Shown here: piece by piece, positions 2,420 to 54,418 of the stretch
How positions within the stretch are numbered: position 1 is the stretch's first letter
Layout of the letters: each line of letters opens with the position of its first letter
DNA from: Podarcis gaigeae
Lineage: Eukaryota
NCBI GenBank assembly: GCA_964106915.2
Contig: OZ066919.1
Direction: 5' to 3' (one strand)
Length of the DNA: 64,000 bases
Notes under the pieces: model-generated
What the model was told of the DNA's origin: nothing
What the model saw: only the letters and a program-made list of their open reading frames with translations
The model's database searches: none
Position numbers and translations under genes: made by a program

Positions 2420-2695
2420 TGTTTATATTTGTAAGAAGTCCTTCATCCGAAGATCACAGAGCAGTTCACAACATAAAAATACAAAACCAGAGCACAAAAG
2501 ACATAATAAAACAAAAGCAAACCAATAAACCCACTCCCACAAAAAGTAATTAGCCAAGGGCCTGGTTTGGGGGGGGGGGCATTTTCACCTGGTGCCTAAA
2601 GAAATGCAATAAGTCCTTGAGGAGAGCACTCCACAAACTGGGAACCTGCTCTCATGTTGCCACCCTCCGGACCTCTTGTGAAGGAGGCGCACAAA
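2420..2695 (-). mobile_element. L2-like LINE 3' fragment
   Basis: cttcatccgaagatcacagagcagttcacaacataaaaatac, an A-rich run, then ggagagcactccacaaactggg; resembles squamate L2 3' ends as I recall them. Confidence 0.6.
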
Positions 2696-5600
2696 AAACT
2701 TTTGCAACTAATGAATACTCCCTTAAAATTACACATTCATTCTTTTTTAATGTACAGAATCTCATTGTTTGATTCTTAAAATAATAATAATCAAGTGATC
2801 CTCTAATCAGCGGGTAAGCAGTATCTACTCCCACCCCAAAATAACCCCATCATCCATAGTAACAACCTATCCATGATGAGTCTCCATTCATCAGCAGAGC
2901 ATAACATCTTTGGGAGACCAGTCGACAAGCCTTGAAATGCCTGCCGTGGATCTAAAGAGCTGATTCATCCAGTTTCTGAAAAGCTTTTGTTTTCTCCTCC
3001 ATAATGCCGTCGTTCAAAATAAAGTCAACCTTGGTCTCATATTTTCCATTAGAGGAAGTCTATTGCTTCTAACAGTAAACTTCAGCAATGCATTGATTGT
3101 GCCTCCATTTGTTATAAATGTGATGTTAGTGTTTTTTAATATCTTCAAACTTAAAATATTAAAAATAATTGTAGCATTATTTTTGGTGTAGGGAACATAC
3201 ACATAGCAGGAAATGAACGGTATAGGATTAGTAGCATTTGCGCACTAAAAAAATATGACGGAATCAGCTGTGTCAGAAATAGGCAGCATCAACTCCCCCC
3301 CCATCAATGCACTTAACACTGTATGTATATGTATACAGCAGTTTGCATCTGGATAGTACTCAATACTGAGTCACAGTATTGATCTTTCTGCACATCAGTT
3401 AAAGGCTGAACATAGATCATCTTTTCTTTCCATTCTTGCTATGTATTCCTGTGCCATTGTGAAGCAGATGCTTGTTGTGGCTTTCTTTTTTGTGTGCCAT
3501 GGGTAGGAATTGGAATCCTACTGTGTCTGCTGAGCTTTAGTGCCCTGTTCTCATGTGTCTATCATTGGTGGCTCATTGAAACCATCCTTCTTGTGGCACT
3601 TTGAGGAAGAGTGTATTGTCCCTACCTAACAAAAACAGCTTTGTTTCATAAAGTCACCTTTACATTAAGATCACTATTTCTATTCCTAAATTCCCATAAA
3701 GAAGCAGTGAATCCAATTCCAAGCTATTCAAAAGCCACAATGTTTCTGTTTCGTTGGGTCGTGTAGGACAAGACAGTAGTTAAAATAAATAAATGCAAAT
3801 GTTATTTTCAGATTTCAGATCATTTTTTTCATGCTGTTTTAGGGAGACAAGTGTGGATATGCCCTGCTGGTTTGGGTTTTCCTATCTACAGAGAAAAAAA
3901 TGTTTCTTTTGCAGTTAACAGAAGGATGCTCTGCACAGCACTGCCTAGGCAGAACTCTTTTAACATGTAGTAATTTTACTCCTTTAAAAATAGCTGTATT
4001 TCAATATGTATATTGCTTACTGCTCATTTCATTACAAAGCTATTTTCAGTTGCTCTGTGCAGAAGTGAAATGAATCAAGAGTCTTTTCTGATTCATGAAT
4101 CAAATTCAGAGCTTAATTTGAAGAAGCATATTTTGAATTTGATTTAATATGAAAATTTGTTGATAATTGCATTTTCTTGTTCTGGCTTACTATTTACAAG
4201 TCCCTTAGAAAAAGGAAAGGTAACATGATCGTGCTTACTTTTTAATATATAATACTTTATTTAAAGAAGAAAATAAATTTTGGCCACAGTCCTGCACCCC
4301 AAAAATAACAAGAAAAACCTGTGAGTCGAGATTTATCTATCAGGCATGTTACAGACTTCCTCCAATGCAAGCTTTGGGCCAAACTAGATGTTATGTTTTT
4401 TGTATCTTTAGTCTCTGTATGGCTATTTTCTTTCCTGGAAATAAATATCTGACATGGGATGTCTGAGCCAGATCAGGGCTGTGGCATCGGGGCGGGAGGA
4501 GGAAGAGTTAGTTTTCATCCCACTATGGTCTTGCTCCAAATCAGGGGTGGGGTGTATACTATCTGTTTCATTCCCTAATGGTGACAAAAGTCCCTGTCAC
4601 AGCACACCCAACCCACCTCTGGGACCCCTGTGCCAGCTAGCTAGCTGTTTATTTCTTTATTTTAAAAACCAGCCACACATGAGCTTCCAACATGAATAAT
4701 GTCATGTTTAGTTTGACCCTCTGTCTTTAAGAAGACGTATACCAAATCCCTCTCCTTGCACTACTGTGTAACTGGACAGCTTGACGAAACCTGCACCCAT
4801 CTTCTCTTTCAAACGTATACGCATAAGCACACACAAACACATGCATACACATAAATTATTTCTGTGGTGTCTGTTCAAAATTCTTCACAGACACATCTAC
4901 ACAGAGGAAGAAATAGTGAATATTGGAACATGCACTGAGTATTTAGCTTGTAGATTCCAAATTAATGATCAGCATACTTCAAATTTAAGTTCATGACTGT
5001 CCAGGTTGAGAACAGCTACATGTGAGTGTTCGGTCTTTTCATGTGAAAGCAGACAAGCAAAAGAAGTGAGTATACTTTTAAACTGTTCCAGCTCTGACAC
5101 GTCATCTCTGCGCAGTTTAGAGCCCACAAAAGGTTACGAAAAACATGGTTTATTAGGGGTTTCACAATATTACCATAGGGCAGCACAGTCCCTTAGCTTC
5201 CCTCCCCCCTCTGAATTAATGCTCATTTTCAGCTACAGTATTTTCACTTCTGATATTCAGTTGTTTAGCATTGTACACAGTGCTCAGGTTTGCATGCTCA
5301 GATAAGGGTTAGGATAAATGAGTTTCAATGCTTTGCTAGTAGTCCTAGATTAACACCCATTAAGGACGTTTCCATCCCTGTGTTGTGCATCTCACTGCTT
5401 CTAGTCATGGGGGTTAACGTGGTGAAGATCTCAAAATGTGTTTTCCGAATCTATTGGAAACTTAGCCTTTCATGCAGTGCATGAAAACCCATGAGTTTTC
5501 TCATGGGTGGCTAGTTGCAGGAGGTCTTGCATCCAGTTTTCCACATATGATGTCCTTTCCAACACTGAAGGATTATTCACTTTGCTGCCAAAGTAGAACC

Positions 5601-8600: not shown

Positions 8601-11600
8601 AAAACTTGTTCTGCAATCTCATTGCAACTCCATCTATTCACTGGAACCTGGAATGGTGCTGTAATTGGATTCTTTGGTAAATGATTAGAGCTATGTATCA
8701 CACAGGATACGAAACCCTCGCATCATTTGTTATCTTCTTGCTTCTTTATGGACTGCATTTAGATATGTATTACTGTTGCAAGGATTCTTCTCAAATGATT
8801 AAGTGTCTTGGGTTCTAATAGCTCTCTATTTGTTTCGGTTTTTTTCAAAAATCCCGTCTACTGCCAATGGTTCCTGCTCCCCCAAAAAAACCTTTTCAAC
8901 AAGAAAGCTGCTGTAGATGAATTGCTACTAATATGAGAATTCTAAATCAAGCTAAAAATGCATTGCTTTTTCCTTGAATAAGAGTGTTATTGATTAAATT
9001 ACAGAGGAATTGAGAGAACCCCACTTGACATTTCTCTCAATTATACTGCACAATATATGTTGATACTTCAAATAACCCAAGTCAGTCCTTTTAGGATTAA
9101 TAAGCACATCAGAAGCACCACTTCCTACATCTGTGCATGATATTTTATTTTAAGCCTTGCTTGGACCCAGGAATTCAGTGGAAAATATTCAAGTGTTCCA
9201 TTCGTTAGCTGCACTGATTGAACTTGCAGTTTTTGTTTACTTTAGCAAACCCATCTGTCCCTGAAAATGTGCAGTTGTACAACTGTGCACTCACAGCCGA
9301 CATATCACTAATAATTATGTTATCCTTGTCTTTATGCCACTGTTTTACTACTATTCATCCTAAGCAGGTGCAATCTTCCTCTTATTGGTGGATTATGATG
9401 TGACACAATGCAACATGATTGTTTCATGTACCAGTCATGTCTTTGGCTTGAAAATGTTTCGTGGATAATGCCGTTGTTAAAAAGTATATTTATTATAAAA
9501 TATTGCGTACGTTAGCTTGCAATTGAGACATGCTACATAAAGAATGGCATGGCCAGCATTTTCTCCAAGGTGTATGCTTTTCCCCCTTAGAAAAATAATG
9601 CACTTTTTATAGCTAGCCATTATTGGACAAAAGTTAGCTTATACATTCTCATCCCAATGCCGAGTCCTTCATTTACTCTGATAAATGTGCAAGCTTTCCA
9701 ATTCATTTCAATGGAGAAAGCTGCTACGTACGTGCAATCCTATGTGCACAGAAATCAGCTCCATTTATTGCACTGCCTGGACCAGAACAGATTGCTGTAC
9801 TGGAATATCTATCAACAAGTATTTAATATATCCCTGCCTTGGAATTGAGTAAGTTGCATTAGCTAACCAACCCCCCACTCCACGTTTTTCTTTTATTGGG
9901 ATGACGGGGCAAAGATTTGATAGAAATTATGAATATTTGGTAAGATTCGCTTTGTAAACTAGGCTTCTCACTTTTATTCTTTTAATTGCTTACTGTGCTT
10001 TGTTTCTTCCTTCTAGAGTTATGTACTTATTTTTCTTAAGCAGATGTTTCACGTCAAGATTGAAAAGTCATTGCATTTCTCAAGATTAATATCCAGTAGT
10101 ACAAAAGCACCCTCCCCCCAAAAAAGATAACACAAACGGGCCACCTTCCCTTATAAGAAAGAAGGGCAGGGCACAATCGAATGGTGGGAATAGGAAATAT
10201 AATATACATATAACACTTTTTTACTATGTTATGAAGCTCCAGGAGACGTTCCGTACTTAAGACAACCTGGTTTTTCAGCACACCTCTCTTCTAAAGCCTG
10301 AAACCTCTGTTTTGCACAGGTTCAAGTTGTTTTGTGTGACTTCTGAACAAAGTATCTATTTTTAAAGTTTATCAATTGATTAAATTTCAGACAGATTTTT
10401 TTAAAAATAAATAAATAAGTTACGCTCCCTCACTTTATTTATTTATTTGCTAGCCATGGTGAATTATGGTGGCTTTTCTCCCTCCCCTCTCCCCTCTCTA
10501 CTCCCCTTCAAAGAGATTCTTTCTTTCTCTTCTTGCTTTCCCATTGCTTTTGGTGCTTTAGCGAATGTCAAGCATTTCAAGAATATTTGCAGGGGTCCCC
10601 CTTTTACTGGTTTGATGAAAATTCATTTGGTATTTCTAAAGCTATGAGATCTCAGAAGTTTCCATTTCATTCAGTGGAAAGGGGCACAAGTTATATAGTG
10701 CATGCCATATAATGCTTGCTAAACCTCATTGTCTAAAAGTGACATACACAGGATGGAGAGGTGGATGGGGGTGGGATGGGGAGAGAGACGGAGGGACCGA
10801 CGAACGAACGAGGAAGCTTGCCATCCAATACTGTCTCCCTTCAACCAGGGTGCAACAGAGACTTAGATCTTAAGTATCCCCATTCCATTTGTGGAAGTAA
10901 CTGTAGTCCATCAGATATTCCCAGCACATCAGAGGTGGAACAGTACTTTTTTGCCCATGTGCCCTTGTTCCTGCAGCCCCATGCGCCACACCTCATTCTG
11001 CAGTGCAGCAGATTTTCAACGGGCAAAGGTGGTGCAGGTTAAAGGGGAAATCAGTTCGGGATAATCCTGTGAATGGAACTCAACCCTTTGGGACTCTCCC
11101 GTTAGCAGAAGCTTAGTTGGCAGCTATAAAACTGCTTATTTTCTGCTCCTCCAATCAGCTTTCCTGTTCTGTCAGGGAGATGGGAGAAAGCCTTTCCTTG
11201 AATGAAAGGGGAAAGCAACTTATTCTCTCCTGCGGTGTGAGCTGGCTGCATAACTCTGAGCAAAGAAGGCTATATTTCCACTCTCTGCCAGGTTGAGTCT
11301 TCTCATCCTACATGAAGAGGGGAACCTCTTCTCTGAAGGTGTGGAACCAGCTATTTGACTCAGGAGAGAGAGGAGGAAAAAAGCACTTTCTCATTTAGCT
11401 AGGGAAATCGCATACCGTAACCTCCCTGAAGGTTGCTTCCTTTAATTTGGCAACAGCCATTTCAAAAAGAGGCAGCCTGCAGATTCTGGAAAAGTGATCT
11501 TGCCTCCTGCATGGTGAGGCAGAGGAGGATCAGGCTGCTCGTGGAAGTTTATGTGAGCAGGGGAGAAATCAGTAGTGCCATAGAAATAAGTAATAGAAGG

Positions 11601-16943: not shown

Positions 16944-17185
16944 CAGTGGTACCTCGGGTTACATACGCTTCAGGTTACATACACTTCAGGTTACAGACTC
17001 CACTAACCCAGAAATAGTGCTTCAGGTTAAGAACTTTGTTTCAGGATGAGAACAGAAATCATGCTCCGGCGGCACAGCAGCAGCAGGAGGCCCCATTAGC
17101 TAAAGTGGTGCTTCAGGTTAAGAACAGTTTCAGGTTAAGAACAGACCGCCGGAACGAATTAAGTACTTAACCCGAGGTACCACTA
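16944..17185. mobile_element. Tc1/mariner (Tigger/pogo-like) MITE
   Basis: TIR CAGTGGTACCTCGGGTTA / TAACCCGAGGTACCACTA (17/18), TA on both sides, internal CTTCAGGTTA repeats. Confidence 0.9.
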
Positions 17186-22439: not shown

Positions 22440-23363
22440 CATAAGCCTTTAGGAAATAAGTGTCAAAGGGAAAATTTTAAACCTGAAAAGTGTCAGATCC
22501 AGTTGTTTCCAGAAGGCCTGACATGGAAAGGAGTGAATACCTGTCACAGTTTGTAAATTCCTCCAGGCAGGGACCTGTCTCTTCTTTGTTTGCAAAAGTG
22601 GCAGGCACACCTGTGGAGATGATGGAATAAAAAACCCTAAGTAATGAATTGTGTTGCTCCACTAGCCAATGTTGCTTTGAATTTTGCTGCAGCCAGCGGC
22701 ACTCTAATACCCCAATGAACAGGCGGGCTTGCCAACTCTACCTTTTTTTTGGAAGGAGATTACCTTGCCACTTTTGAATTTTGAATGTACCCTTTGATGG
22801 TTGGCCTTTTTTGTTTTGTTTTGTTTTGTTTTCCTTTTCATTTTCTCTCTCTCTCTAGTTTTCCTGGAAACCGTTATTTACAATTATGACAAGCTTTTCA
22901 AGAGCGGAGATGGATCAAATCAGAGACCTGTCCCTGCAAATTATGATAAGCAGAGCTTAATTTCACATGGGGAAACCCAGGTTTCTGCCTCCCAATCCTG
23001 CAAACTTAAATTTATATATATATATTATTCAAGGGAGAGAGCCCTTGAAGTGCCTGCTTTTCCAGCTGTTTCATATGTTTATACACATAAAGTGGACCTG
23101 TATAGCCACCATGTTGAGAGCAGCATGCACACTCCCAAATAATGGCCTAAAATCCCGTGTCTACCTAGAACTTCAAGACCTGTCCTGAGGGATTGTGCTT
23201 TAGTACTTGGTGGTCCTGGTATCATGTTCTGGCTGCCTTTAGACAGTCTGGCAAAAATGCAACTTTAGGAGGCAGTTTAATAAGGATATAGCCTTCACAT
23301 TCATCCTTACTGTTCATCCCCAGTGTTTGGTGAAGCGCACTCTGTACGATTCTTCCCCTAGAT

Positions 23364-23495
23364 CAGTGTTTCCCAAACTTGCATCTCCGTTGATAGACTA
23401 CAACTCCCATCATCCCTAGCTAACAGGACCAGTGGTGAGAGATGATGGGAACTGTAGTCCAAAAGCAGCTGGAGACCAAAGTTTGGGGAACCCTG
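23364..23495. mobile_element. hAT (Charlie-like) MITE
   Basis: TIR CAGTGTTTCCCAAACTT / AAGTTTGGGGAACCCTG; 8-bp TSD CCCTAGAT / CCCCAGAT; palindromic interior. Confidence 0.88.
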
Positions 23496-23574
23496 CCCCA
23501 GATTATAGCATCTGACAGGAGTGGCTTCACCAACTAAGGGAACAGTCTCAGCTGCCTCAAGAGTGGAGTTTAAC

Positions 23575-25015: not shown

Positions 25016-25896
25016 AAATATATGATGCAACAGGTTAATACACCCGACTCCCCTGGAACAGCAAAACACGGTCACTCCTGCCATGTTAAAATGAGTAATA
25101 TGAGTGAGTGAGCTCATACACAAGGCCACTTGCCACACACAGAGGCTCCCCCCCCCCCATTCAGTCCATTTAAAGTACAGTCGATGATTCTATGCCTTAT
25201 TAATTATTGTATATAGAAAGTCTAGTTGTGATAATTATTAGTCCTGAGTGGAACAGTGTAATCTTCGGCATATACTAGGTTATTTACTCTTGGGAATCTT
25301 ACGTACAATGGGAATGTTTTGTATGTGAAAAAAACCCTATGTATTTTAATTTGAATGTTGTCAGCTTGATAGAACTACCAATTACAGAACCCAAACCAGA
25401 AGTTTCTTGTTTAAATCCAGTTTTCTTGACATCAATGATTAAGCTGTCTGTGTACTTGCCATTGACTTAAATTAGTTCTTTCTTCACACCTGCTCTATCA
25501 AAATAGGGAAAGGGGAATGTTTAAAGGCTGAGATGTTGAAACACTAAAACAACACATGCATGCGAGGCTTTTTTTCTGTTTGGGTCTAATCAGGCATGCT
25601 GGAAATCTCTCAAGCAAAAATGACTGCCGGGTGGGAAGATGTTACAGTAATTATCTTGCTGTAAGTTGCAGAGTGGATGACATGAAGTTAGGGTGGTTTT
25701 TTGTGTGTAAACGGCCTGGTTATTTACAACCTACTTTTTCGTTTTGGAATCTGTTCATTTGTTGCTTCCTTGTTTGTTTTGCTTTTCAAATATAGAACTT
25801 GGTTTTATAGTGTAGATTCTGCCATGTTTTCTTTGTTTAAAGGTATCCATACACATTTTATCATACAGAAATAAATCACTATTAAGGCCTCTAGGG

Positions 25897-26032
25897 CAGG
25901 CTTCCTCAAACTCGGCCCTCCAGATGTTTTGAGACTACAATTCCCATCATCCCTGACCACTGGTCCTGCTAGCTAGGGATCATGGGAGTTGTAGGCCAAA
26001 AACATCTGGAGGGCCGAGTTTGAGGAAGCCTG
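25897..26032. mobile_element. hAT (Charlie-like) MITE, young
   Basis: Perfect 34-bp TIR CAGGCTTCCTCAAACTCGGCCCTCCAGATGTTTT; 8-bp TSD CTCTAGGG / CTGTAGGG. Confidence 0.92.
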
Positions 26033-26078
26033 CTGTAGGGAGTCGAAGTTTTTAGAAATATAACTATTTGGTAGATGG

Positions 26079-33900: not shown

Positions 33901-34669
33901 TGTAGAGACTCACAATTCAGACAGAAAGAGGATATTAAGATGGATTAGGCTAATTAATTTTGCTCCTGACAATAGATAGTCCTGACCCAACTTTTGTCTA
34001 TCCATTCAGGCGTGGAGCAGTGTTCTGGGCGCGACATCTTTTTATTTGTGTGACGCACGCTGTTTGCATTTCTATTTGTTTTCGAAATCAGCCAAATCAT
34101 ATGCAGATATAGATATATGTACCTAATGACACATTGTAACTAGGTAAATGGGACATGGTGATTCAGCAATCACCCACATTATGCATTAACGTAAGAGCCT
34201 CCCTTCAACTGACGAATACCGTGTTTTCACTAAAGATCCTTTAAAAAATCCTCCTTAATTGCATATTATTTTGTGAGCATCTTAATGTGAGTGTAAGTAT
34301 GTAAGATCAGGCCGCTACCGGTCATTCTTCAGTTCTGAATAAATGGGAAAATCCTCTGCTCCTGCCAAACTTAACATGAACATCGGAGTCCAGTGTAGCT
34401 CTAGCCCGGCTGGAAGAACTTTAAAATTAAAGCCATGAGTGTTCCCTTTTTATATGCTTCAGTATGCTAATAATATTCTTTTTCGCTGCTGCTCCAAGGC
34501 TTCTTATATCAATGCTCTTTGTTATAAGGGGAAAGCGGTAGCCTTTTGGTCTCTAAATCACTGCAAATCATGTTGACAGTTAAATATTGTAATTGTCATC
34601 AGATCATGTTAGGGACTCTCTCCTGTTGCCTTAAGGCAGTAAGGCCTAATATTTTTCTACTGAATGCAG

Positions 34670-34853
34670 GCTATTGTTGACACGGTGGACAACCTGCTTA
34701 GGACCCAAGCGCTAGACTCCTGGAGAGATATGAATTCCTCTGAACGAGCACATGCTGCAACCATGTTACTTGATACCCTGGAAGAAGGGGCCTTTGTCTT
34801 GGCTGACAACCTCTTAGAACCAACAAGGGTCGCAATGCCTACAGATCACATCG
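34670..34853 (+). CDS. ADGRL2: ADGRL2 GAIN exon (184 nt)
   Basis: tgcag|GCT ... G|gtaagt; [11 protein letters not shown]...[25 protein letters not shown]. Confidence 0.96.
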
Positions 34854-35029
34854 GTAAGTGAATACGTCTTGAAACGCTTGGCATCACACCGTGGGAAGAG
34901 TCCACCAAACCTAGTGGTTATTCCACATTAGATGGAACAGTGTAATCTGCCCAATTAGAAATATATTACGTGAAAATAATACAGAAACCCCTGCATTTTA
35001 AAAATGGAAAAGCATTGTAGATTGATGTT

Positions 35030-35252: not shown

Positions 35253-36350
35253 ATAGAAAATACATAGATATTTTTCAGTCCTCATGGTAGAAACTCTTTC
35301 TCCTTTTTACATAATCGGTTCCTAATGAATGTAGATTACTTTCAGGGAGAGCGCATTGCCAACTTTGGGCACATAGCACATAGTCTAAATGTTTGCATTA
35401 AACACAACTGCCTTCAGGTGAAAGTGTGTTCAGTGAGCCACGTCTCCCACAATACAAAATAGCCATGCTTCGCAGATTGCAAAATAGCTACCAACACTTT
35501 GAGCATAATTTATCATTTAAATGCTGGCAGGGAAATGAAACTATTATGTATTAGGGACATACAGGTATATCTTGTTGTGGTTAAGAAGGTTGTTGTGTAT
35601 AGATGTAAAATGCCACTCTCCTTGCGCCCTTGAGGCTTATACCAGTCTACATATTAGGAGGTAGAGCACACATATGTCACAGACATTTTGAGGCTAGACC
35701 TTAAAATGGAAAAACTAATTTATGAATGGGAGAATGTCAGGAACGTGGATTTGTGAATGAGGTGGGGCATATTTCTGTTGCTAAAGGTGAAGGCAGAGTT
35801 TGCAGATGATCAGCTGTGGAATGCTAAGGATGTCTACTCCAAAGTAAATTCATCTAGGTTAAGTGGGCCTTTGCCTGCAAAGCAAATCCCCTTTGTACCA
35901 GGCCTGGTGGGCTGGGGAGATGGATTGGCTTGAGGTGCCTCACCACCCAGTCATTGCACTGACTGCCACTATCAGCCTGCAGAGCGAGGTCAGCATGTAG
36001 AGTCTCCCCCACAATGGGCAGAAGTACCACCAGTGGAAGCCATGTTCCAGGAAAGAGGAGGTGCTGAGCTGGACCTCTTCACTTGCTGGCATTGGTCCTG
36101 AGCTTGGCTGGATCACTGATCACCTCCAGGCTGCTGCAGCAACCTGCTTTCCCCCTCCTCCAGCCATCTCCCCTGGCCGGTGTGAGAGTTGTGGATGGGT
36201 TCCACCATTCCGTCACACCCTGCCCTTGCCCAACTAGTTGCTATCTAGTAATCATATTTCTTTCATATTTAGTTTATCTATTTACATTTATAAATATATA
36301 CCCATTTTTCCCCTAGAAAAATAGCTGCTGGTACGCACCCTGCTACAGTT

Positions 36351-36481
36351 ACAGATAGGTAGCCGTGTTGGTCTGCCATAGTCAAAACAAAACAAAATTC
36401 CTTCCAGTAGCACCTTAAAGACCAACTAAGTTAGTTCTTGGTATGAGCTTTCGTGTGCATGCACACTTCTTCAGATACCCT
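36351..36481 (-). mobile_element. Short Penelope-like element (terminal repeat fragment) with 16-bp flanking duplication
   Basis: GCACCCTGCTACAGTT at 36335-36350 and 36482-36497; the insert carries the hammerhead motif typical of PLE terminal repeats. Confidence 0.8.
36440..36479 (-). ncRNA. Minimal type I hammerhead ribozyme motif
   Basis: Minus strand reads GGUAU-CUGAAGA-A-GUGUG(CAUG)CACAC-GAAA-GC-UC-AUACC: intact core, stem I 5 bp, stem II 5-6 bp, palindromic AGCU stem III. Confidence 0.8.
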
Positions 36482-37119
36482 GCACCCTGCTACAGTTTTT
36501 AACAAGAACAAAAAAGAGGTGCCGTTACTGCATACTCTTGAGTAACCCCTGAAAAAAAGGACTGTCCATATCCTACCTTTCCCCAGAGTTGTGCCCATTG
36601 TTATTACCTCCACCACCCCTTTAATTTAAGTATGTTAGGCTAAAATACAATGACTGAGCCATGGTCACCCTACAGAGATTTAAGCCTGGATGCCTCCAGT
36701 CCCATTCTGACAGTTTTAATGATCTACTCCTCTGGCTTCCTGTTGCTGAGAGATTAGGCATAGCAATAGCAAGTAGGACACAAACACTAAAAATTCATGC
36801 ATCATGGCTGCTTTGGTCTCCAAAAGTTAAGCATTTCTTCCAACTAAGAACTCTTGGGACTTTTGAAGTGATCTCTCTTAGGCTCACATTAAAACCAGGT
36901 TGGCTGTCATGTTCTTTGAACTGGCGTGCTGTTACTTTTGTGCATCTGCACTCGGGTTTGATTAAAATTTAAAGGAAAACGACTCCAATGCTACCGGTAT
37001 GCATCTGTCATGTACAAGCAAGAAAATAAGCATCCCGAAAGGAAAAAAGGAAAAGGAAAACATCAGCCAAATCTGACCACAGAAAACAAAAACCTTCTTC
37101 TTGCTTTTTGTCCACCTAG

Positions 37120-37242
37120 TCTTGGAAGTTGCAGTGCTGAGTACAGAAGGACAGGTGCAGGACTTGAAATTCCCCCAGGGCAATGCGGGAGGCAATTCTA
37201 TCCAGCTCTCTTCGAACACTGTGAAGCAGAACAGCAGAAGCG
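37120..37242 (+). CDS. ADGRL2: ADGRL2 GAIN exon (123 nt)
   Basis: cctag|TC ... G|gtatgt; [19 protein letters not shown]...TVKQNSRSG. Confidence 0.95.
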
Positions 37243-37510
37243 GTATGTCTTTTGCAAACCATTTATTTTTCAGCTGTAGCAACTTAATTTTGGAAGGGTT
37301 TGCTGTGTTATAATAATACACCCTCAGCAACATTAAAAATAGCTAGTCGATAGCTCTCATTTGTAAATAACATTAGGCTGGCCTTTTTTCTTTCTTTCCT
37401 TCTTTTTTTTTTTACTCGAATCAATCTTTCTGCACTAAAGCTGGGGAGGGCTAGGCTATTTAAAACATGCCATGTTACTTAAAGTGACTATAATAGCTTT
37501 CTTTTCACAG

Positions 37511-37716
37511 GGTTAGCAAAGCTGGTTTTCATAATTTACAAAAGCTTGGGCCAGTTCCTCAGTACGGAAAATGCAACCATCAAACTGGGAGGAGAGTTTG
37601 CTGGCAGGAACAGTACCATCGCTGTGAACTCTGACGTCATTGCGGCCTCCATCAACAAGGAGTCCAGTCGCGTGTACTTGACAGACCCTGTTCTTTTCAC
37701 CCTGGCACACATTGAT
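37511..37716 (+). CDS. ADGRL2: ADGRL2 GAIN exon (206 nt)
   Basis: cacag|GG ... GAT|gtgagt; [25 protein letters not shown]...[11 protein letters not shown]. Confidence 0.96.
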
Positions 37717-38214
37717 GTGAGTTATGGTAATGAATTAATGGGAAGGTCATAAAATCAGCAAGAGCAAAGAGCAAAGAAGGGACGGGGGTGGATCTTTCAA
37801 TTTGAATTTTAAATGTCGGACTAGGTCAGAGGCACAGGTTTGTTTAAGTCTACGAACATAAAATTAAATGAGCCTGGTTCAGTGATTATTAGAACTTAAG
37901 TGTATTCTTAATGAAAGCTAATTCGGTAATCAACATGAAAATGTAAATGGCTCTAATTTGTTCCTAAGTGAAAATTAACTCTTACCTTAGCAGCAGGACA
38001 GAAAAACACCAGCTCTTATGATTTTGCTTCCTTAATGCAGCAAAATCTTAATGGAACTTAGAAGATTTTGCTTTAATTCCATACTGTCTGCTGGAGCCCA
38101 TTCACTAATCGTTCAGATAGGTTTTAGTCAACGAGGGAATCTGGTGCTGTTTTCTGCATTCTGCTTGGCACTAGGTTTAACTTCTCTGTGCTTGAACTAG
38201 TCAGGTGTTAGTAT

Positions 38215-40937: not shown

Positions 40938-41625
40938 CAGTGGTGCCTCGCAAGAAGAAATTAATTCGTTCCGCAAGTTTTTTCTTCTTGCGAGTTTTTC
41001 GTCTTGTAAAGCACGGTTTACCATAGGAATGCATTGAAAATCAATTAATGCGTTCCTATGGAGACCGCTTGCCAGGCTGGCGGTGTGGAGAAGGGCTTTT
41101 CTCCCCACCGCAAGCCTTCAGGACAGGTACGGGAACAGAGGCATTCTGAATGTTGGCGGTGGGAAGGAAAACCCTCCTCCCACCGCAAGTCTTCAGGACA
41201 GCCATCCAAAGGCTGCCAGCGGGGCGGAGAGACCTCCTCCCGCCGCCAGCCTTCGGAGCAGCCTTCCGATGGCTGCCGGCGGGGCGGAGAGACCTCCTCC
41301 CGCCGCCAGCCTTCAGAGCAGCCTTCCGATGGCTGTCGGCGGGGTGGATAGACCTCCTCCCACCGCCAGGCTTCGGAGCAGCCTTCCGAAGGCTGGCGGG
41401 GGGAGGAGGTCTCTCCGCCCCACCGCCAGCCTTTGGAGGAGGTCCGAGGACAGTGGGGAAGACGCACTGCGCTTCCCCGCTGTCCCGGAGATTTCCCTAT
41501 GGGCTTTCGTCTTGCGAAGGAAGCCCATAGGGAAATTCGTTTTGCAAAGTGCCTCCAAAACGGAAAACTCTTTCTTCTAGCGGCTTTTCCGTCTTGCGAG
41601 GCGTTCGTCTTGCGGGGCACCACTG
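40938..41625. mobile_element. Non-autonomous Tc1/mariner (Tigger-like) element with internal GC-rich 60-bp minisatellite
   Basis: TIR CAGTGGTGCCTCGCAAGAAGAA / TTCGTCTTGCGGGGCACCACTG (20/22); TA at 40936-37 and 41626-27. Confidence 0.92.
41161..41430. repeat. 60-bp period GC-rich minisatellite, last unit inverted
   Basis: Lines starting 41221, 41281 and 41341 are near-identical; 41385-41421 is the reverse complement of the unit. Confidence 0.9.
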
Positions 41626-51700: not shown

Positions 51701-54418
51701 TTGTTTTGGAAAATTGTGGTTTACAAAATATAGACAATATATGTATTCTGCTCTTGTGCCTGGGATTTCATGCATGGCTCATATTGTGAGCTAGGACTAG
51801 GCATGCAGAAAAGTCTCCTTCTCCACGCACTTCACCCTCACTCAATAGGTCCACAGTTCTCACACCCTTTGAGAGGAATCATTAATCACAAGAAAATTAC
51901 AAGATCATTTTATAGTGTTATGACAGCAGAAATCTTTCCATGAGTCAGTTTGAATCAATTCCTTGAAAGAATCAATTCAGTGGCTTTCAAGGCGCACACA
52001 ATATTAATGTTCTTTAAGAAATTAAGCATTTAAACTGTCATATATATATCACCCAATCACACCTTACAAATATGTGTGATTTCTTAGATAGCAATGAGAA
52101 GAATCAGGAGAGTGAGGAATAAGCAAAACATTTTCTTCATAAAAATTCCGAGTACAAGTCATTTCTTGTGAGTGTATGCTCTTCTTGTGAGTGTATGCTC
52201 TTCAACAAGTTCCTCTGCTCTGCCCCTTTCTGCTTTCCATGTTACATGATATTATGGCAATCTGTCCGAGTTTGTTTAACCCTTGTTTAGAGGTGATTTA
52301 TCTAGAGGAGAGGCATTTTCCCAGAGCTCTCACCTACCATGGTGATGTTCTTACCAGGTGTGTGTGTTTAATAGCAAGAAAGCGAATACTTTTCTAATGG
52401 GTACTTGGAGCATAGGCAAACCAGGACTTCTGAATGTTGCTTTCACAGAGCGAACTAGTGTGCTTTGGTTTGCTTGATACTTTAAATTGTATCATATTTC
52501 ACAGAGATGTGGAGAACAAGTATCTCATGCTCTGTTGTCATATGTCTTAGTTACTTTGCTTTAGAACTACAGTATGATGTATTCTTAAAGAGACTTTCAT
52601 TTTCACTTACCATCATATTACAGGACCTTTATCAGCTGAATCAAAGTGCAGTGTTTCTTGTTCTGCCACCCTTTCTCTTTCTTTCACTTTCTTTGCTTAA
52701 GCAGACACTCAATTTTTTATTTTTATATCAATCAATAAGTTTTATTGTTTATAGCCAATGGCCATCACAATACAATATGAGCACAAATCACACAGCTACA
52801 AAAACACTGTATGCTCCAGACCAGGAAAAATCCACCACGTCCAAAATTTAGGAACATTCCTTCTACTCAGAACCCCCCACCACAAAGGATTCTACTTCTC
52901 TGGGCTGATTCTTTTGGCACTTTCAAATCTGATTAGCCGTCTACTGGCATGAGTAGCATGATGATATCATTGACCCCAGTTATGGATAGTGTTTGCTGTC
53001 TTGGGGGGTGGAGGAAGAGATGTTCACTGTAGGGAGGTAGGAGGGCTTGCTTCATAAACCACATTGGTTTCCACAGCGGATACCCACAGGGATCTGGCTG
53101 ATGTTATAGCATCTATGGCAATCCTCAACTTCTGCCAGTGAGGAATGCAGTTGGAAGTAGCATATGGCTTAAAGGCCCAATTAGGGCCACTATTCCAGCA
53201 CTAAACATGAGTAATGAAGTCATGATCCTGAACACTCTAGTAGCAAAGTAGAAAGTAAAGCTATGCCAGCAGAAACAAGAGATATTAGCATAGCAGCATG
53301 GACAACCACATCCACAGTATCCATGGAAATATTGCACCAATTTATAGTGACTTCAGGGGTGCTGTGATGCTATAACAGAAACCGTTCCACCCCCACCCCC
53401 AGTGCATGAGCATGCTTGCAGGAAGAGATATTTGTGTCTCAGAAGCATCCGTGACTCACTGGTTAGGAGGACAGCAGCTGATCCCTACAGCTACAGTGGC
53501 ATCAGCAGGATTTTGGATTTCAAGGCAGCCAAAATACAGAATCAGAAGCAGCCTGAAATCATAACACCTTTTGCCAGAACCAGTGTCCACTCCAGTTAAA
53601 GCAGGCAGCCAGTTTGTATAACCCAGAGTGTAGAAGGCTTGGGTGCAGCCATTTTGCAAGGGAGGAAAGATAGCCAATTCTGCTAGGAAGAATACACAGC
53701 AAAACAGCAAGGACAAAAAAAGAAAGCATTGTGAGCTGCCTGGTTGCTATAGAGTACAAAATAAATGCATTATTTACACTATGGCTTTACAGGGAAGTGG
53801 AAAGGGCAGTCTTTGAGTCATTGCTAATTCCTGCAGTTGCAACAGGGGATCAAACTGGCTTCAGTTTAACTCCCAGTATTGGTTGTAGTTTATTGTCAAG
53901 TAGTTCATATGTAAACAAGGTCATTAACATGCCAAAATTATTATTTTGCTTTGGGTGTCCCATGCTTAGTATAATCAATTGTCCTTTCTCCGTGATAATA
54001 ACAGCACCAGCATTTGAGATGAGTTTGTTAATGTGAACCAGATTAATTTCACCTTGAGTTTCTATTCTCTTGATCTATAATGGCTTATTCAAAACCTGGC
54101 TAGTTCAGAATTTCCTTGTTTTATAACACATTATTTATATCACAGGCATGTAAAGAATCCACATACAGGGCTCATTCATATGTAATGCTTAGTTCAGTGC
54201 TATATGATTGAGTTGGAATGAACCCAAGCAAAACATCTGACCGCGTTCTCCCCTCCTTCCTTCTCCTTCTCTCACATGGCAAGGAGGAAGCCTGGTTGGT
54301 TGTTAAGTTCAAACCAGGGGATCTGGTTTAAAACAAGCTCTGCTAAGTTTCCAATGTAGCCAATTTCAGACCATGAATTGTTAAGCTGTCAAGGCCAGGC
54401 TGAACACTGGTGAGCAGG

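Follow-up and report, generated by a model that had tools for sequence, protein, structure and literature searches.

A fairly recent insertion carrying an intact minimal hammerhead, likely of Penelope-like origin, in an intron of a latrophilin gene

Minimal hammerhead ribozymes have been described in the terminal repeats of Penelope-like elements and, by the thousand, as dispersed single motifs in animal genomes, reptiles included (PMC4209133). According to the same source, the lone minimal motif showed no cleavage in vitro and dimers were cleaved weakly, and the 5′ end of helix I is where the intron of the D. virilis Penelope element stops. A TATA box with an initiator has been reported in Penelope terminal repeats (PMC3846280), and an inverted arrangement has been described for Penelope elements (PMC8557442); further background is provided by PMC6765202 and PMC2377424. 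For the Poseidon element of Anolis carolinensis (PAc), reverse transcription was reported to start internally, 111-118 nt into the ORF, with the cut lying 26 nt in, which by calculation places the start 85-92 nt past the cut site; uncut RNA serves as the template, and cleavage needs the protein of the element (PMC11167929). Non-LTR retrozymes, which are short non-coding type I hammerhead units related to Penelope terminal repeats, are defined by at least two tandem units, and their monomers also occur, often within introns (bioRxiv 10.64898/2026.07.22.740005). Among titles and abstracts in the literature, nothing was found on the family described here or on stubs bounded by a transcription start; Repbase and Dfam, which were outside the scope of the analysis, may hold the family.

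The window, i.e. the whole 64-kb stretch of DNA that was analysed, contains an exact 16-nt direct repeat with copies at 36335-36350 and 36482-36497 (both + strand) and 131 nt in between. An earlier note on this DNA had described these 131 bp (36351-36481) as an insert within an exact 16-bp duplication, and the description was confirmed both by the sequence and by an empty site in a relative. The two 16-nt copies form the left and right target-site duplications of what is likely, on the − strand, the terminal-repeat unit of a Penelope-like family of high copy number, extending from the 5′ edge of a hammerhead motif to the common 3′ end of the family. Exact 16-mer repeats within 500 nt were present in 5 of the 300 Markov-simulated 64-kb windows used as a chance control. 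The 5′ junction of the element comprises a 7-nt tandem repeat (36477-36490, + strand), the first bases of which fit either the longer form of the element, apart from a single change, or a copy of target sequence serving as filler. No second copy of the insert was found within the 64-kb window and no tandem unit at the locus. Folding of the whole insert was ordinary (z 0.08), and exact-pattern scanning found 0 matches in each of the viral, metagenome and prokaryote collections.

Of 24 runs listed, four were compared with the window: three of DNA, from a second sample of the source organism (A), a sister organism (B) and a relative (D), and one of RNA, from a further relative (E). One contig from organism D matched 36000-36335 and then continued unbroken at 36483-37717, a skip of 147 nt (131 + 16). 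Because this contig omits exactly the insert and one 16-mer, the locus represents a true insertion with a target-site duplication, and the orthologous site reducing to one 16-mer that the earlier note had called for does exist. In the second sample of A, contigs at 36000-36370 and 36453-37380 spanned both junctions, as did contigs at 36000-36368 and 36453-37440 in B. These junction contigs were unbranched and of single-copy depth, and nearby heterozygous sites in B appeared as two half-depth contigs, which suggests that both samples are homozygous for the insert; the contigs themselves show presence and not absence. The idea that the insertion might be polymorphic was not supported by these samples, since the site was filled in both (n = 2). 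The flanks differed from the window at 1 of 1299 bases in A, 8 of 1357 in B and 21 of 1571 in D. The insertion can likely be dated between the divergence of D and the separation of A from B, the empty site being that of one relative, and the description of the insertion as recent is upheld to the extent that it is fairly recent: it is missing from D, whose flanks differ at those 21 positions.

Inspection of the − strand at 36479-36440 revealed a minimal type I hammerhead whose core is intact, as had been read earlier, and both the letters and a descriptor built from the published consensus of minimal hammerheads bear this out. Helix I is formed by 36479-36475 paired with 36444-36440, C3-A9 corresponds to 36474-36468 and is followed by an extra A at 36467, helix II is formed by 36466-36462 paired with 36457-36453, and G12-A14 and C17 correspond to 36452-36450 and 36445, respectively. 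The predicted cleavage site lies between 36445 and 36444. The motif contains CUGANGA followed by H, the GAAA core and an NUH cut site, together with G10.1-C11.1, an unpaired base between 9 and 10.1, a helix I of 4-5 bp and a palindromic 15.2-16.2 segment. The descriptor gave a single match in the 64-kb window, namely this motif, and in the 300 simulated windows it gave one relaxed match and none of equal strength. Rfam returned 0 matches in the window and no hammerhead match in 36200-36650 at the gathering threshold or at E up to 10.

Pair probabilities were 0.93-0.94 for helix II and 0.53-0.61 for helix I. All five of the base pairs earlier assigned to stem I are present here, but the fifth, involving G36479, is absent from the longer form of the element; because the longer form has U at this position, the fifth pair is restricted to this copy or a subset of copies. 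The palindromic A15.1-G-C-U16.1 (36446-36449, − strand), the expected contact of a helix III dimer, is likewise present, but the one-pair stem III formerly proposed is unable to close in the monomer because G15.2 and C16.2 are adjacent. Helix II and its loop together make a perfect 14-nt palindrome (36453-36466), and a homodimer paired through it was predicted at -37.2 kcal/mol, compared with -9.3 for one folded monomer. On this prediction, a strand-swapped palindrome dimer would compete with the helix III dimer.

The closest printed relative of the motif is the minimal hammerhead of Chrysemys picta (Cervera and de la Peña 2014, PMC4209133 Fig. S3), with which it shares CUGAAGA, the extra A, G10.1-C11.1, GAAA and the palindromic AGCU. 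The 4-bp helix I is GCAU/AUGC in the turtle and GUAU/AUAC here, and the 5-bp helix II is GUGGG/CCCAC and GUGUG/CACAC, respectively, a difference of one compensatory pair in each helix (PMC4209133). Most motifs in that source are, like this one, dispersed singles, and no ORF linkage is marked for the turtle motif in Fig. S3. By contrast, loop II is 4 nt long here within a palindromic helix II but 7 nt and not palindromic in the turtle, and position 17 is C here but U in the turtle (PMC4209133). Within the present family, U replaces C17 in 5-10% of the depth, a change that the NUH rule permits, and G12 is lost at a CpG in 13-18%; the copy at 36351-36481 has neither change.

Similarities to PAc were also evident in that its hammerhead lies ∼90 nt upstream of the 3′ end, its template is uncut RNA, its nick site is AT-rich and, in the account given by PMC11167929, no RNA-seq ends fall at its cut site. 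PAc nonetheless represents another family because its helix sequences differ. In addition, its ORF starts in the hammerhead whereas all three frames of the present unit close within it, and its reverse transcription starts without target homology whereas a match of 3-5 nt is found here (PMC11167929). The Penelope elements of Adineta vaga similarly have solo terminal repeats and inverted partners, and they have a TATA box ∼20 bp before an initiator, to which the promoter-like motifs of the present family may correspond; their duplications are of 8-10 bp instead of 16 nt and their copy number is low instead of in the thousands (PMC3846280). A non-LTR retrozyme was considered for this locus and rejected, as those elements have at least two tandem units whereas a single unit with a duplication is found here, the 64 kb containing one copy and a single motif (bioRxiv 10.64898/2026.07.22.740005).

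Contigs matching the insert numbered 11,309, 11,396 and 9,918 in the three DNA runs and, with ∼10,000-11,400 per genome, they establish a large dispersed family; about one-third of them were at least 99% alike. Summed depth reached 1.5-3.7 million over the insert, as against 8.5-49 over unique flank, a contrast that is not a copy number; division of the ratio by 31 to correct for overlapping words gave 2,600-5,600, from which we infer that copies number in the thousands in each genome. In all four runs the loose ends of other copies gathered before 36346-36348, so the 3′ end of the family reaches 3-5 nt into the left 16-mer. The last 3-5 nt of that 16-mer (36346/36348-36350) also match the family 3′ end and likely represent priming microhomology. 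The distance from the predicted cut site to the common 3′ end is 94-98 nt.

At the other end, loose ends behind 36478/36479 accounted for 67 + 45 of 1062 partly matching contigs in A and 59 + 51 of 1089 in D, and in the RNA run the reads ending behind 36478 numbered 97; for B these two positions were not among the end rows listed, and all end counts come from the rows listed in summary tables, which left out a further 661. Flanks at the clustered ends were mutually unrelated (agreement 0.36-0.48). Common ends of short copies, which the earlier note had proposed as a check, were thus found, and shorter and longer ends also occurred (e.g. P0001). A longer form with a common consensus runs past 36482 in all four runs. 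In it TCAGT precedes the hammerhead, its A corresponding to the insert's first base (36481), and a TA-rich box lies at about -30 to -22 from this initiator-like site; these promoter-like motifs were read from 30-letter loose-end consensuses with an agreement of 0.55-0.94. The 5′ ends of short copies gather, at 36478-36481, ∼30 nt below the TA-rich box. Opposite-strand joints at 36478 were seen in all three DNA runs, elsewhere than at the 36351-36481 locus, and a chance frame (P0002) reads the longer-form continuation and then an inverted head-to-head copy that starts near the same 5′ edge; both match the inverted arrangement known from Penelope elements (PMC8557442).

Taken together, these data make it very probable that the locus is a real insertion of a hammerhead end unit, likely Penelope-like, that was likely written by a reverse transcriptase/endonuclease from uncut RNA and is probably inert. 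The family shows a hammerhead in a terminal repeat near the 3′ end, a target-site duplication with an empty site, and inverted and partial-tandem arrangements. Judged by sequence, the element behaves like a stub of a Penelope terminal repeat and is otherwise ordinary, and membership is likely. In the proposed mechanism, an endonuclease would make two nicks 16 nt apart, one on the + strand after 36350, where the sequence is AT-rich and a T/A run follows, and one on the opposite strand. The nicked end would pair over 3-5 nt with the RNA, so that synthesis would begin internally, 94-98 nt beyond the cut site, and the reverse transcriptase of an autonomous Penelope-like element, working by target priming, would copy the uncut hammerhead. 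The enzyme may then stop at 36478-36481 because the RNA begins there, at the initiator-like site, a step given only just under an even chance, and the end would be joined by short microhomology to leave the 7-nt tandem junction. The resulting stub would be neither self-transcribed nor efficiently cut, as it has no TA-rich box and no neighbouring partner motif.

On this mechanism the stubs would be complete copies, with transcription starting at the 5′ edge of the hammerhead and reverse transcription starting internally, ∼135 nt downstream, on uncut RNA, a reading that we hold tentatively and somewhat short of evens. If it is correct, the 5′ end of each autonomous element's mRNA yields hammerhead stubs of constant length that have no promoter, a process that would account for the thousands of intact single hammerheads across animal genomes. 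The ends of genomic stubs would then map the transcription start and the reverse transcription start together, and the in vitro result from the anole would be extended to thousands of natural events. Uncut RNA would be the normal template, which bears on the role of the hammerhead in Penelope elements. The locus itself is of minor importance, its use being that of a clean marker whose presence or absence distinguishes related species.

The same stubs could be ordinary 5′-truncated downstream terminal repeats, in which the reverse transcriptase drops off, or its product is joined, just past the hammerhead and the transcription start is irrelevant. Most insertions of Penelope-like elements are described as 5′-truncated in PMC8969392 and bioRxiv 10.64898/2026.07.22.740005, and both the microhomology with the 7-nt tandem repeat at the 5′ junction and the shorter and longer ends (P0001) speak for this reading. 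A stall at the hairpin would, however, be expected on entry, near 36440-36453, and not past the 5′ strand, and the two positions at which 112 of the 1062 partly matching contigs in A and 110 of the 1089 in D break are those of the initiator-like motif. Truncation is a possible reading, a little less probable than the transcription start.

It is unlikely that the ∼135-nt unit propagates by itself as a non-autonomous mini-family, whether SINE-like or as a retrozyme monomer, whose transcripts a partner reverse transcriptase recopies. Common ends, high copy number and the one-third of near-identical contigs would agree with such a family, and non-LTR retrozyme monomers are said to derive from Penelope terminal repeats (bioRxiv 10.64898/2026.07.22.740005). 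The unit does not, however, include the TA-rich box, transcripts reading through from host promoters would bring 5′ flank along, the ribozyme cut is internal to the unit and not at its edge, and the locus has no tandem unit. Moreover, 97% of family RNA reads in organism E continue into unlike sequence, with family reads divided about evenly between the strands (287-358 vs 342-345 in two central bins). Of the earlier suggestions, that of a non-autonomous insertion is supported, but that of a mobile mini-family is not, the short unit being part of a longer element.

Still less probable is that the 5′ edge is a splice acceptor. The longer-form consensus does fit an acceptor, with a pyrimidine tract and CAG before helix I, and would parallel the D. 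virilis intron that ends at this point (PMC4209133). Spliced copies should, however, share an upstream exon, whereas the flanks are unrelated (agreement 0.36-0.42), and an initiator-like TCACT that lacks the AG is retained upstream of the turtle motif (PMC4209133).

In organism E, host exons were read on one strand only and intronic depth was almost nil. The RNA pattern of the family fits passive transcription inside host RNAs with little cleavage: sense-strand depth, which is family-wide, was 341, 335 and 342 at 36437, 36445 and 36452, and neither a pile-up of ends nor a dip in depth was found at the cut site in this RNA, from a fragmented library that could miss cut ends. Although the core of the present copy is intact while 13-18% of family depth has the G12 change, a young copy is expected to be intact anyway, the lone minimal motif is uncleaved in vitro (PMC4209133), the anole motif needs protein (PMC11167929) and sense depth is even across the cut site, so that a functional ribozyme cutting host antisense transcripts is very improbable. 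In the RNA run (X23), changes at 36388, 36416 and 36427 were present in 26-36% of sense reads and were rare in the DNA of the other organisms; A>G and T>C were dominant, at 16 of 25 places. One highly expressed copy is the likely source of these changes, and some may possibly reflect A-to-I editing of inverted copies.

The insert itself contains no reverse transcriptase or GIY-YIG frame. An ORF starting in the unit was considered and rejected: the longest frame has one stop, at which 21-41% of family depth carries another base, and searches gave chance frames or nothing. Length changes in a T-rich tract also argue against coding. Protein searches of family read-through yielded only three short chance frames and no reverse transcriptase, and 25 of the 144 open frames of the window were scanned against Pfam.

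A latrophilin gene (ADGRL, presumably ADGRL2) on the + strand hosts the insert, which lies in an intron between two exons of the GAIN region. The upstream GAIN-region exon falls within an open frame at 34664-34858 (+), and RNA depth places the downstream exon at 37098-37241 (+, start approximate), from which a GT..AG joint to 37510 was seen in 10 reads. With the host gene on the + strand and the hammerhead on the −, the host pre-mRNA carries the coreless strand. The antisense orientation reported earlier is thus supported, but its corollary that antisense transcripts would be cut is doubtful, given a lone motif without helix III and sense reads that cross the site undipped.

The insert is hosted by an older, lower-copy dispersed repeat at 36305-36609 (limits approximate). 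In the three DNA runs this repeat was above single-copy depth in bins 36488-36609, and other copies skip 36335-36534 (joints 36334-36535). A short internal direct similarity was observed within it. Elsewhere in the window, an exact 18-nt direct repeat with copies 91 nt apart, beside a 17-nt tandem duplication, was present at 17017-17144 and is possibly another small insertion. Dispersed-repeat copies at 23356-23502 and 25890-26040 form an inverted pair, 77% alike over 151 nt. A GC-rich 60-bp minisatellite occupies 41173-41438 within an intron (4.4 copies, 86% matches), and a perfect 19-bp tandem duplication lies at 52163-52203.
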